DNA of 64,000 nucleotides from Candidatus Poribacteria bacterium. Lineage in GTDB: Bacteria; Poribacteria; WGA-4E; WGA-3G. The stretch is from the NCBI GenBank assembly GCA_028824685.1, contig JAPPCZ010000053.1, positions 21,554 to 85,553 on the forward strand, read 5' to 3'. The translations under genes were made by a program, and so were the position numbers. Shown here piece after piece: positions 36,827 through 48,259 of the stretch. The stretch's first letter is position 1; every line of letters begins with the position of its first letter. The notes under the pieces are model-generated. The model was not told the DNA's origin, made no database searches, and saw only the letters and a list, made by a program, of their open reading frames with translations.

Positions 36827-36855
36827 TTGACAATAGATGAAAGTACTTGTATAAT
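36827..36855 (+). promoter_or_regulatory. Consensus sigma70 promoter of the left 3-gene operon
   Basis: TTGACA (36827-36832), 17 nt, TATAAT (36850-36855). An AT-rich UP-like tract lies upstream and is conserved with the right arm. Confidence 0.75.
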
Positions 36856-36861
36856 ACCTCG

Positions 36862-37185
36862 TATACGTTAGAAATTCACGATCTATTTGAATTTTTAGCG
36901 GTAGAGGTGCTTTTTCCGGTTTTCCGGATGCACCGACAGTGTTCAACAGACACTGCCGATGCCGAAGCACTGCCAGAGTATCCTTCTGACAGGCTGGTGT
37001 CTATCATAACACGCACAGACCTTATATGTCTACGTGTAATAATAGAGACCAGCAGCCTCTATAGAGATAGTAAAAACGGACACATACCAAATCAACGGTA
37101 TGAACGCCATTTAGGCGTTCCCCGCCTATTTCTGTAGTCTGTCAAGTATATTTAACCGACTCAATTATGATAGAGGAGGCACAAG
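36862..37185 (+). promoter_or_regulatory. Conserved, apparently structured ~320-nt 5' leader RNA (left copy)
   Basis: Multi-hairpin architecture shared with 47949-48224 (minus strand). Stems are conserved, loops are variable, and substitutions are G-U compatible. Ends in GAGGAGG-N6-ATG. Confidence 0.55.
37088..37121. mobile_element. R4 mini-element: a 34-nt insertion present in the left leader and absent from the right leader
   Basis: Left: GGACACATAC[CAAATCAACGGTATGAACGCCATTTAGGCGTTCC]CCGCCTATTTCTGT. Right arm (gene direction): GGACACATACCCGCCTATTTCTGT. Confidence 0.75.
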
Positions 37186-37446
37186 ATGAGACGAGACTAC
37201 AAAGTCCTTTTCACCTCACTTATTGTTTTCGCATGCATCATCACAAGCGGTTTATTGCTGTTTGGCACAATAGATGTCACACAGGGAGATCCACCCGCTT
37301 GTGAACAGCAATTTAAAAGAGAATGCTCACCGATAAAAGGATCACCGAAACCGGGCTTGATTTGTCCAAGTCCGAGACAGCCCTGCCCACTGGAAATAAC
37401 GCATAGCAGGGATAACAACAAGCTTGAACAGGAGGAACTGAAATGA
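37186..37446 (+). CDS. Small membrane-anchored Cys-rich protein (86 aa)
   Basis: TM LFTSLIVFACIITSGLLLFG, then PPACEQQFKRECSPIK...GLICPSPRQPCP (4 conserved Cys). About 88 percent identical to 47688-47948. Confidence 0.7.
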   Translation: MRRDYKVLFTSLIVFACIITSGLLLFGTIDVTQGDPPACEQQFKRECSPIKGSPKPGLICPSPRQPCPLEITHSRDNNKLEQEELK

Positions 37447-38132
37447 ACCGTAAAACTTATTGGGGCATCGCAGCCCTTGTTATAATCCTGATTGCTGCTG
37501 GTGGTTTTATGTATTGGCAGTGGTCATCCGTGCAGCAGCTCAAAGAGGAGCTTGCACAAGACAATAAAATGCTTGAAGAAAGGGATAAGCCGGTTGCAGA
37601 AAATAAACCGCCCCCTGCGCGCGAAGGCTTCAAGATGGTGCCGCACGGTGACCATTGGCATGAAGTGCCACTTGACGCACCTGATACGTGGCAAGGGGAA
37701 ACGCATGAACCCAGCGCGCAACCCGTGCAAACTCCAAAAACGTATGATGGTCCCTTAACCTACGACCAGGAACTGTTCGAAACAAATCCTGTGAAAGCGT
37801 TGAGTCTTGAGATGGAAGCAAGGGGACTCTGGGGTGCTGGATATATCCCGCCCTTTCCACCTGACGATTTAGAGGCACAAGAGTTAGCAAGGTATGAGTA
37901 TATCGTTGCGTTTATGCCCAATGCAGAGGATAAAGTGGTGTTGGACGCTGTAAATAAAAGTATAGAACTCAGGAGGCATTTTGATGAGAAATATGGTTTT
38001 TTTTCTGCTAGGGCCTGTGATTTAAGGAGATTAACGTGGCCCAATGACGAGAATCCTTCGCCTGATTGGGAAATACTTGTTAATTCTCCAAACTATCCAT
38101 CAGAGTATTTTAATGGAGGTGAACTAAGATGA
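37443..38132 (+). CDS. Membrane-anchored protein with an HGDHWH histidine-triad-like motif
   Basis: ATGA overlap with the upstream gene. N-terminus MNRKTYWGIAALVIILIAAGGFMYWQWSSVQQLKEE resembles the family A anchor. HGDHWH at 37644-37661. Confidence 0.7.
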   Translation: MNRKTYWGIAALVIILIAAGGFMYWQWSSVQQLKEELAQDNKMLEERDKPVAENKPPPAREGFKMVPHGDHWHEVPLDAPDTWQGETHEPSAQPVQTPKTYDGPLTYDQELFETNPVKALSLEMEARGLWGAGYIPPFPPDDLEAQELARYEYIVAFMPNAEDKVVLDAVNKSIELRRHFDEKYGFFSARACDLRRLTWPNDENPSPDWEILVNSPNYPSEYFNGGELR

Positions 38133-38173
38133 TGAACCAGAACCTAACATTTCAGATTAAAAAGGAGAAGATC

Positions 38174-46901: not shown

Positions 46902-46944
46902 AAAGTTCCTCCATTTGTTGACTCGGCCCGCAGACCGGTTAATA

Positions 46945-47691
46945 TCAATAATCCCACATACCTAATGCTTTCAATTGGCGCCTCGTTTCTGGATTACCAA
47001 AATACTCTGACGGATGGCTGTTTACGTTGCCCTTGCTGTCGGAAACAACATACTTATCCACATGGGGCCATGTGAGTTTCAGTAAATCATATTTGCGCGC
47101 ACCATACGGATACGACATAATAGTTTCCTCCATCCGACTCATATCTCCTGATGCCTTAGCATATATCCTTGTTTCCTTTTCATATTCGGGAGTACCGAAT
47201 AGATCCCCGAAGGTGTGGTGATAGTATTCGAACAGATATATCGCCTTGGCGAATTCTTGTGCTTCTATATCATCTGTCGGAAATGGCGGTATCCATTCTG
47301 CTGCCCAGTTGCCGCGTTCTTCTGTTTGTAGGCGGAGTGCTTTCACGGGATTCGTTTTCAGCAGTTCCACGTGAAAGGTCAAGGGACCGGTATACAATTT
47401 TTTCGGTTGTGCCTTCGGCGCATCGCGCTTTTCTTTAGACACTTTAACACTCGGTTTTGTCTCCGGCACCTCACGCGTTTCTTGTTTCGGCAGATCATCA
47501 CGTGAGGGGTCTTCTTCGTGTGGGCCTTCATGGAAACTGCCATCTGCATGAAAATGCCCTATCAACTTATCGTTTTCGGCAACTTCTTCTTTGAGCTGCT
47601 GCACGGATGACCATTGCCAATACATAAAACCACCCGCAGCAATCAATATAACAATCAGGGCTGCGATGCCCCAGTGAAATTTACGGTTCAT
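46945..47691 (-). CDS. Membrane-anchored His-rich protein, paralog of 37443-38132
   Basis: The first ~36 aa are nearly identical (MNRKFHWGIAALIVILIAAGGFMYWQWSSVQQLKEE). GHFHADGSFHEGPHEE. Confidence 0.7.
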   Translation of the reverse strand: MNRKFHWGIAALIVILIAAGGFMYWQWSSVQQLKEEVAENDKLIGHFHADGSFHEGPHEEDPSRDDLPKQETREVPETKPSVKVSKEKRDAPKAQPKKLYTGPLTFHVELLKTNPVKALRLQTEERGNWAAEWIPPFPTDDIEAQEFAKAIYLFEYYHHTFGDLFGTPEYEKETRIYAKASGDMSRMEETIMSYPYGARKYDLLKLTWPHVDKYVVSDSKGNVNSHPSEYFGNPETRRQLKALGMWDY

Positions 47692-47948
47692 TTTAGTTCC
47701 TCCTGTTCAAGCTTGTCATTATCCCTGCTATCCGTTGTTTTTAGTGGGCAGGGTTGTCTCGGACTTGGACAAATCAAGCCCGGTTTCGGTGCCTCTTTTA
47801 TCGGTGAACATTCGCGTTTGAATTGTTGTTCGCAAGCGGGCGGATCTACTTGTGTGGCATCTATTGTGCCAAACAGCAACAAACCGCTTGTGATAATGCA
47901 TGCGAAAACAATAATTGAGGTGAAAAGGACTTTGTAGTCTCGTCTCAT
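47688..47948 (-). CDS. Small membrane-anchored Cys-rich protein, paralog of 37186-37446
   Basis: 86 aa, same 4 Cys, ATGA overlap with the downstream gene. Confidence 0.7.
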   Translation of the reverse strand: MRRDYKVLFTSIIVFACIITSGLLLFGTIDATQVDPPACEQQFKRECSPIKEAPKPGLICPSPRQPCPLKTTDSRDNDKLEQEELK

Positions 47949-48224
47949 CTTGTGCCTCCTCTATCTAAATGAGTAGGTTAATTGTTTGTGACAGACCACA
48001 GAAATAGGCGGGTATGTGTCCGTTTTTACTATCTCTGTAGAGGCTGCTGGTCTCTAAAGTAACATTGACGCTTTCATAAGGTCTTTGTTAAAATAGAAAC
48101 CAGCCTGTCAGAGTCTCCTTCTGGCAGTGCTTTAGCATCGGCAGTGGGTGTAATACACTGTCGGTGCATCGAAAAGCACCTCTACCGTTAGAAATTCAAA
48201 TAGATCGTGAATTTCTAACGAATA
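47949..48224 (-). promoter_or_regulatory. Conserved structured 5' leader RNA (right copy, without the R4 insertion)
   Basis: Contains the perfect 12-bp hairpin GTTAGAAATTCA/TGAATTTCTAAC (48187-48219) and the same helices as the left copy. Confidence 0.55.
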
Positions 48225-48230
48225 TCAGGT

Positions 48231-48259
48231 ATTATACAATAATTTTAATTTATTGTCAA
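48231..48259 (-). promoter_or_regulatory. Consensus sigma70 promoter of the right 3-gene operon
   Basis: Minus strand TTGACA (48254-48259), 17 nt, TATAAT (48231-48236). Confidence 0.75.

Follow-up and report, generated by a model that had tools for sequence, protein, structure and literature searches.

The 64,000-nucleotide (nt) stretch of Candidatus Poribacteria DNA analysed here, called the window below, carries two sets of genes that converge on each other. Each set, or arm, consists of a promoter, a leader, three genes named g1, g2 and g3 (g1', g2' and g3' in the right arm), a terminator and a WD40 gene, mirrored between the arms according to the list of open reading frames (ORFs), a repeat search and pairwise comparisons (Table 1). 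An earlier note on the same DNA had described the locus as an inverted duplication of four genes spanning about 11 kb. Gene order and coordinates of both arms are as given there, on the evidence of the ORF list. The duplication did not stand up: similarity at the DNA level is confined to some 1.15 kb where the arms begin at their 5' ends, and the WD40 genes lie outside the module. The real unit is a three-gene operon, g1-g2-g3, with its own promoter, leader and terminator, restricted to Poribacteria and present in multiple copies.

Table 1. Features of the two arms in window coordinates (aa, amino acids; pLDDT, predicted local distance difference test score)
Feature	Position	Strand	Evidence
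Left promoter, TTGACA-17-TATAAT	36827-36855	+	12/12 consensus match
Left structured leader RNA, 5' untranslated region of g1	36862-37185	+	nhmmer E 6e-67; covariance model 108.8 bits, E 1e-25; model core 36928-37055
34-nt repeat-like insertion in terminal loop of leader helix H6	37087-37120	+	Arm alignment; absent in right arm
g1, 86-aa N-terminally anchored Cys/Pro-rich peptide, ...C-P-x-P-x-x-P-C-P-L-D motif	37186-37446	+	ORF
g2, 229 aa, membrane-anchored, VPHGDHWHEVP histidine-triad hairpin and conserved helical domain	37443-38132	+	ORF; AlphaFold2 pLDDT 78
g3, 579 aa (594 aa from alternative start 38129), secreted; helical N-domain, CCHC-like Cys/His knots, C-terminal Cys/His repeat module	38174-39913	+	ORF; homologues; AlphaFold2 pLDDT 57
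Left terminator hairpin and T run	39934-39970	+	Arm repeat match; sequence-conserved
Cluster of dispersed 25-nt palindromic repeats, operon to WD40 gene	40035-40146		Repeat search
Left WD40 gene, signal-peptide-like N-terminus and about 14 WD40 blades, separate transcription unit	40315-42189 (ORF from 40201)	+	ORF; Pfam
Spacer of convergent WD40 genes, repeat-rich, 716 nt	42190-42905		Repeat search; DNA comparison
Right WD40 gene, signal-peptide-like N-terminus and WD40 blades	42906-44795	-	ORF; Pfam
Conserved terminator hairpin of right operon	44943-44970	-	Sequence match
g3', 634 aa, secreted; N-terminal architecture as g3, C-terminus of two Ig/FN3-like beta domains and a Ser/Thr/Asp-rich linker	44994-46898 (ORF to 46901)	-	ORF; comparison
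g2', 248 aa, anchored, other subfamily, GHFHADGSFHEGPH motif, ...ALGMWDY tail	46945-47691	-	ORF; alignment
g1', 86 aa, 90% identical to g1	47688-47948	-	ORF; pairwise
Right structured leader RNA	47949-48223	-	nhmmer E 4e-72; covariance model 107.8 bits; model core 48044-48169
Right promoter, TTGACA-17-TATAAT	48259-48231	-	12/12 consensus match

Layout of the arms and their relatives

Pairwise comparison of the arms gave protein identities of 90% for g1, 42% for g2, 23% for g3 and 35% for the WD40 proteins. Inverted DNA similarity was found only between 36742-37892 and 48342-47244 (about 1.15 kb, 74% with gaps), and outside this 5' block the DNA comparison of the arms returned nothing save cross-matches between WD40 repeats. 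Within the block, which contains inverted repeats of 404 nt that are 89% identical together with further flanking blocks, identity ranges from 72 to 98% per 50-nt window; it is broken by the 34-nt insertion in the left leader and falls past about codon 40 of g2. Of the likeness previously claimed for promoter, leader and g1, that of the promoters (identical) and of g1 (24 of 261 nt differ) was borne out, and the leaders are 72 to 84% identical per 50-nt window outside the insertion. The start of g2 had been reported as identical over some 36 codons; its first 36 residues differ at four positions. For g3, the homology between arms is recognisable as stated, at 23% over the N-terminal 400 or so residues (E 9e-12).

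The ATGA start/stop overlaps said to link the genes join g1 to g2 in both arms. Between g2 and g3 such an overlap exists only with the upstream ATG at 38129, whereas homologues and an AAGGAG ribosome-binding site favour the start at 38174; in the right arm, g2' and g3' are separated by a gap of 43 to 46 nt.

Searching with a g2 profile led to 78 genome loci of other species, with 95 g2 units. All of these loci, and every named homologue of g2 or g3, belong to Candidatus Poribacteria, which are sponge symbionts. Linkage around g2 is frequent: of 87 assessable units, 45 have g1 immediately before g2; 61 of 92 have g3 immediately after it, and 41 of 84 have both neighbours. A search started from g3 homologues yielded the same triad of a small, an anchored and a large protein. 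The expected co-occurrence of four genes was therefore found for three of them, since only 2 of 92 related units have a WD40 gene within 1.5 kb of where g3 ends. The mirrored arrangement did not recur at all: convergent pairing is seen only in the window's own strain and is absent from the 78 loci of other species, where multiple copies are mostly tandem and direct, with one divergent pair in L081.

Both g3 and g3' are followed by strong intrinsic terminators, beyond which dispersed repeats intervene before the WD40 genes. The terminator hairpin, AGGCAGGTAKCC-loop-GGKATCTGCCT followed by a T run, was found 52 times in 1.38 Mb of related loci; in 42 loci it stands some 25 nt beyond g3. Because it is conserved family-wide, it is uninformative about any local duplication.

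The WD40 genes are neighbours of the operon and not members of it; they are independently transcribed and belong to a separate expanded family. Their products have 13 and 12 Pfam WD40 repeat matches (E 1e-152 and 1e-104) and N-termini that read, in translation, as hydrophobic and signal-peptide-like. For the left product, identity is 53% with a third WD40 protein, encoded at 25840-27741, but 35% with its counterpart in the right arm. Both belong to the expansion of eukaryote-like WD40 proteins known from Poribacteria (Kamke et al. 2014, PMC3909097). The third WD40 gene, whose product is predicted to be secreted, lies near two ORFs (23237-23740 and 25476-25721) that are 94% identical over 80 residues, and the first of these and the WD40 proteins' N-termini have about 31 residues in common.

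A structured leader RNA ahead of g1

The 277 to 325 nt that separate the promoter from g1 recur, with 65 to 80% conservation, ahead of g1 or g2 in roughly 30 loci that belong to many species (nhmmer E 1e-14 to 1e-73; covariance-model scores of 65 to 122 bits), and the same promoter type precedes the leader in most related loci. Within the window, the leader is confined to the two arms. Folding of the right-arm leader gave a minimum free energy of -87.9 kcal/mol (z = -6.6).

Its structure was assessed for five helices on a MAFFT alignment of 27 sequences, the controls being 3' partners slid by one to three columns and 500 shuffles. In the five helices 88.4% of cells were paired, against 31 to 44% for the slid partners. 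Changes on both sides of a pair were seen for 23 of 54 pairs, compared with 12.2 +/- 2.1 in the shuffles, none of which reached the observed value, and 7 to 13 in the slid controls. A C-A mismatch in helix 3 of this count is invariant in all 27 leaders; two more, in helix 2, persist in the majority of sequences, with Watson-Crick pairs in their place in divergent members. Insertions map to the terminal loop of the last helix, that of the left arm included, and larger ones occupy this position in L006, L017, L019 and L020. The left-arm insertion is itself a member of a second short dispersed repeat family, with similar copies near 17044-17079, 23876-23914, 34920-34955 and 62509-62541.

Downstream of these helices, nearly every leader in which a ribosome-binding site can be recognised has that site paired when the leader tail is folded at minimum free energy, L036 being the only one with fewer than two of four bases paired. 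The partner of the site is an upstream box, either CCU(N)CUC or UGCUUC, and which of the two is present co-varies with the site. Conserved structure with compensatory changes thus lies between a promoter and the first start codon, as in cis-regulatory structured leaders generally. We conclude that the leader is a previously undescribed structured RNA with a predicted sequestered ribosome-binding site. Comparison with Rfam gave no match (best E 0.8 to 9, far under gathering scores), the scan of the window returning only a tRNA, and a literature search on riboswitches of Poribacteria produced nothing relevant. The covariance model of the leader core recovered the same 30 or so loci as nhmmer plus weak antisense echoes, and did not extend the family. 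A metagenome scan for the leader hairpin likewise showed no spread outside Poribacteria-type contexts: five of its matches were true leaders, each on a sponge-type contig with a name beginning in LXNJ01, and three were chance matches in GC-rich sequence.

Several points weigh against this view of the leader. Some helices are largely invariant and hence uninformative; the predicted sequestering hairpins are weak, at -5 to -7 kcal/mol; three GACAG/CUGNC boxes permit alternative pairings; and the leader is seen upstream of only about one-third of the g2 family units, so that it has to be considered a feature of a subfamily. Complementary boxes of the GACAG, CACUGCC and CUGUC types, at alignment columns 85-91, 108-114, 124-130, 153-157 and 391-395 (window region 48169-47980), allow mutually exclusive pairings that include a long-range GACAG:CUGUC helix, and could form a pseudoknot or a switch. 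Three leader matches have unusual surroundings. At L065 14408-14743 (-) the match comes in two pieces, and the first large ORF after it encodes 224 aa with a Cys-rich C-terminus. At L073 7122-7414 (+) and L032 3248-3508 (+), other anchored or secreted proteins are encoded downstream of the leader, which means that its regulon may exceed g1-g2-g3.

Like translational riboswitches and other 5' leaders that mask a ribosome-binding site, the leader places a long covarying multi-helix domain directly upstream of a hairpin predicted to pair with the ribosome-binding site of the first gene. Unlike them, it has no Rfam family, has so far been found with one operon subfamily in one candidate phylum, and has no assigned ligand or partner. 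We therefore weighed whether it senses a ligand at all. It could instead be a leader bound by a protein or a small RNA, an RNA thermometer, an RNA-stability element or a separate small RNA, and to this group of alternatives we give a substantial chance, somewhat short of even. No ligand could be deduced, the sequestering hairpins are weak as they are in RNA thermometers, and a protein might just as well bind at the invariant C-A mismatches and the palindromic boxes. On the other side, a multi-helix domain of about 280 nt with invariant internal loops, adjoining a hairpin that masks the ribosome-binding site, resembles an aptamer with its expression platform, a resemblance that is not decisive.

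History of the arms and of the sequence around them

The two arms are each other's closest relatives over only part of their length. g1 and g1' are mutual best matches, with 89.5% identity against at most 85% to other species. The C-terminal domain of g2, in contrast, is 59% identical to that of L013 in the left arm and 67% identical to that of L059 in the right arm, versus 42% between arms, and g3 shows the same pattern (44% to L011 and 49% to L041 for the left and right copies, respectively, versus 23% between arms). Mutual closeness is thus limited to g1 and the 5' block, the g2 C-terminus, g3 and the WD40 genes having closer relatives elsewhere. The g2 proteins fall into separate subfamilies, one with the HGDHWH motif, to which g2 belongs, and one with a GH.HADG..HHGP motif and a ...GMWDY tail, to which g2' belongs.

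Because g1 is a mutual best match and g2 C-termini and g3 are closer to other species, the arms are old paralogues that belong to different subfamilies, and the likeness of their first 1.15 kb is best regarded as acquired. This head, comprising promoter, leader, g1 and the g2 anchor, would have been homogenised by gene conversion or recombination. Similar behaviour is seen across the phylum. Among genomes with at least two copies, the best match lay in the same genome for 27 of 42 g1 genes, 21 of 80 g2 genes and 10 of 37 g3 genes. The collection holds one genome per species, and a best match in the same genome therefore means that a paralogue is closer than the orthologue of another species, which is a signature of concerted evolution. 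The textbook case of concerted evolution of inverted paralogues by gene conversion is that of tufA and tufB in enterobacteria. As with tufA/tufB, the g1 paralogues of one genome are more alike than orthologues of different species; unlike tufA/tufB, only the 5' head is homogenised here, and the g2 C-terminus and g3 stay distinct old lineages. Two reservations apply: strong purifying selection on the head could contribute to the identity pattern, and the case for gene conversion rests on such patterns, not on a formal recombination test.

A single inverted duplication of g1-g2-g3-WD40, about 11 kb long and diverged in place with conservation decaying from the promoters, would account for the mirrored gene order, the similar gene lengths and the 5'-to-3' fall in identity, and the terminator hairpins of the two arms are indeed homologous. 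The fall in identity is genuine, but it is not the decay of one duplication event: the g2 C-terminus and g3 of each arm are closer to those of other species, which largely refutes this explanation. Moreover, the left WD40 gene has a nearer relative in the copy at 25840 than in its right-arm counterpart, WD40 genes rarely follow g3 in related units, and the terminator hairpin is family-wide. We regard a single duplication as unlikely.

A slightly less probable explanation takes the 5' blocks as the inverted repeats of an invertible segment, of the shufflon or phase-variation type, whose 10-kb interior would flip and exchange promoter-leader-g1 heads between g2/g3 bodies. The 404-nt repeats are compatible with this, as is the phylum-wide architecture of conserved heads and variable bodies, and three short-read contigs, L001 to L003, all terminate within the repeated 5' blocks. 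The contig ends fit assembly breaks induced by repeats, and alone they do not demonstrate inversion. Against an invertible segment, there is no recombinase or invertase within about 5 kb, a single orientation is present in all three assemblies, and copies in other genomes are mostly tandem or solitary. Inversion would in any case change little, since both heads carry equivalent promoters.

The surroundings of the arms were inspected as well. A palindrome, R1, had been placed at the centre of symmetry, but no true DNA palindrome marks the geometric centre near 42545; the 716-nt spacer contains copies of a dispersed 25-nt palindromic repeat, GTCGCGATTCGGAGATCGCTCCTAC. This repeat occurs 12 times in the window (0 expected), at 2785, 5875, 15332, 17273, 36137, 36180, 36214, 40114, 42845, 44867, 58662 and 62658. 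Its copies near the studied locus are intergenic, and it looks like a genome-wide element resembling repetitive extragenic palindromic (REP) sequences, not one specific to the locus. An IS200-like Y1 transposase is encoded at 55644-56237 (+) (Pfam Y1_Tnp, E 1e-38) and might be linked to the dispersed repeats; the Y1_Tnp class includes REP-associated transposases. Both the 25-nt repeat and the 28-nt terminator hairpin, which is common to unrelated cassettes, recall REP elements and shared terminators. Of the 52 places where the hairpin occurs in related loci, 42 are at the end of g3, which makes it far more gene-specific than dispersed repeats usually are.

The unrelated cassettes lie at 8872-15140 on the - strand and consist of a family A of anchored proteins (255-264 aa) and a family B of secreted proteins (154-157 aa). 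The earlier note had seen the same terminator module in both systems, and this proved correct: the hairpin that follows g3 and g3' also follows three family-B genes, at 8872-8898, 11890-11918 and 13676-13704. It had also likened the g2 anchor to that of family A, a likeness that amounts to an N-terminal membrane anchor with 26% identity over 42 residues and nothing beyond. The broader proposal that operon and cassettes are variants of one theme is supported by the layout, an anchored followed by a secreted protein, and by the shared terminator; it does not extend to promoter, leader or ectodomains. The cassettes have their own leader of about 100 nt, 87 to 97% conserved, directly upstream of the genes starting at 10184, 11314, 13248 and 15034, and the g1 leader is absent upstream of the family A cassettes.

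Elsewhere in the window, a low-GC stretch at 54000-58100 (31-35%, versus about 45%) adjoins a tRNA gene (57979-58051), holds an 8xMP membrane-protein gene as well as the IS200-like transposase, and may be an acquired island. Two proteins with tetratricopeptide-like repeats, encoded at 49713-51425 and 18432-21023, are 40% identical, and the former has several near-identical 34-residue units (AVADFDEAIRLDPNNAKLYNGRGVAKRENRQYVG). A 598-aa protein with an N-terminal extracytoplasmic function (ECF) sigma-factor domain is encoded 2.5 kb upstream of the left operon (32853-34649, +), and a protein with sigma-70 region 4 is encoded 5 kb beyond the right one (53177-53869, -).

Gene products and their possible role

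In members of the g1 family, a hydrophobic anchor at the N-terminus precedes between one and three Cys/Pro-rich units that end in ...PCPLD, and g1 had no Pfam or NCBIfam match. For g2, the AlphaFold2 model comprises a long N-terminal helix, a beta-hairpin (residues 63-76) bearing the VPHGDHWHEVP sequence, and a confidently predicted helical domain (109-214). This segment, with its HxxHxH motif, can be aligned to histidine triad units of the pneumococcal proteins PhtD (9p1v) and PhtA (2cs7), with a full-sequence E of 2.7e-5 and weak matches for single units. In Pht proteins, histidine triad units bind Zn2+ at the cell surface. What g2 has in common with PhtA, PhtB, PhtD and PhtE is the motif (V/I)VPHGDH(W/Y)H.(V/I)P, placed on a predicted beta-hairpin. 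It differs from them in having one triad unit only, where they have five or six; in lacking a Pfam match at E <= 0.1, that of the triad family Strep_his_triad (PF04270) included; in its membrane anchor, where they have Gram-positive surface attachment; and in the remainder of the protein, an unrelated helical domain. Foldseek found no PDB match to the g2 model at E < 0.3. The paralogue g2' carries a His motif different from that of Pht proteins and g2.

Proteins of the g3 family, which has 473 representatives at 50% identity, are modular and of the Sec-type secreted kind: a start resembling a signal peptide is followed by a helical N-domain and by Cys/His columns that are invariant and arranged in CCHC-like units. 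C-termini are variable: Cys/His repeats in the left arm, two beta-sandwich-like domains in the right arm, and FN3 or Ig domains in relatives. No relative of g3 was found in Pfam, NCBIfam or by Foldseek in the PDB (best E 0.34), and its alignment profile gave only matches to helical proteins at E 0.1 to 0.35 among PDB sequences. PADLOC profiles run on g1, g2 and g3 matched no known anti-phage defence system. Tandem repeats of 27 nt at 45301-45430 encode the Ser/Thr/Asp-rich linker of g3'. On contig L001, a single 27-nt gap relative to the window occurs within the aligned region, and the g3' product called there has 625 instead of 634 aa; our guess is that repeat-number variation in the linker lies behind this difference.

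We also considered an arrangement like that of polymorphic toxins, in which g3 would be secreted as a toxin or pore-forming effector and g1 and g2 would serve in immunity or export. Variable C-termini and numerous paralogues would suit such a role, as would weak profile matches of the helical N-domain to XaxA and to BAR-type helical proteins (E 0.1 to 0.2) and, in the left g3, a segment rich in Ala, Ser, Thr and Val (residues 85-140) between long helices. The C-terminal modules, however, are Cys/His repeats or Ig/FN3 domains, and neither PADLOC nor Pfam gave a toxin match. A more specific reading as an alpha-pore-forming toxin of the ClyA/XaxA type (profile E 0.23, and the Foldseek E of 0.34 on a low-confidence model) was dropped, because no PDB fold matched and the hydrophobic segment is not conserved in g3'. 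Altogether, a toxin role seems very unlikely.

The least credible possibility is that the palindromic arrangement, as the earlier note allowed, is an assembly chimera: inverted repeats can mislead assemblers and related contigs do break inside the repeats, but the arms, at only 74 to 89% identity, are too diverged to collapse, and the identical 11-kb layout, with the whole interior and the WD40-WD40 junction 99.8 to 100% identical to the window, is present on contigs from three ENA analysis accessions, for two of which the record titles give different BioSample names, and this makes a chimera very unlikely.

Taken together, we favour, with moderate confidence, the explanation that two old paralogues of a multi-copy envelope operon stand in convergent orientation, with homogenised heads, control by a leader, and extracytoplasmic products that may bind metal. 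The strong consensus sigma-70 promoter would drive high transcription. The 3' hairpin of the leader would mask the g1 ribosome-binding site, and the upstream four-helix domain, with its invariant loops and conserved C-A mismatches, may sense a signal (a ligand, an ion, a protein or temperature) that sets the translation of g1. Translation of g2 would follow that of g1 through the ATGA overlap. More weakly, the products are suggested to form an extracytoplasmic and probably zinc-binding surface module, in which the variable g3 tails, made of Cys/His repeats or Ig/FN3 domains, would face the periplasm or the sponge host.

The zinc-binding extracytoplasmic role is our best guess, based on motifs, and several observations count against it. 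g2' is without the HGDHWH motif and has a different His-rich one; the g3 model has low confidence (pLDDT 57); g1, the g2 domain and g3 have no relative in Pfam, NCBIfam, PADLOC or the PDB; and the function is deduced, not demonstrated. A bolder version, which we hold to be rather unlikely, is that the leader is a new class of riboswitch, conceivably sensing a metal such as Zn2+ and governing a new, extracytoplasmic family of Cys/His metal-binding surface proteins in sponge symbionts, and/or that head and terminator are recombination handles by which g2/g3 bodies are shuffled. If the latter were true, the operons would form a cassette-diversification system for host-facing surface proteins.

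The locus illustrates that a striking gene palindrome can consist of old paralogues brought side by side and need not be a recent duplication. A large covarying RNA without an Rfam family is a rare kind of find. Poribacteria are dominant uncultured symbionts of sponges, and their interface with the host is largely a matter of guesswork. Being restricted to the phylum, multi-copy, driven by perfect promoters and made of anchored or secreted proteins without known relatives, the operon is a plausible major component of their cell surface. Its conserved head and variable body, with homogenisation of heads within genomes, provide a concrete case of module-wise concerted evolution, which could explain how surface proteins diversify in these bacteria.

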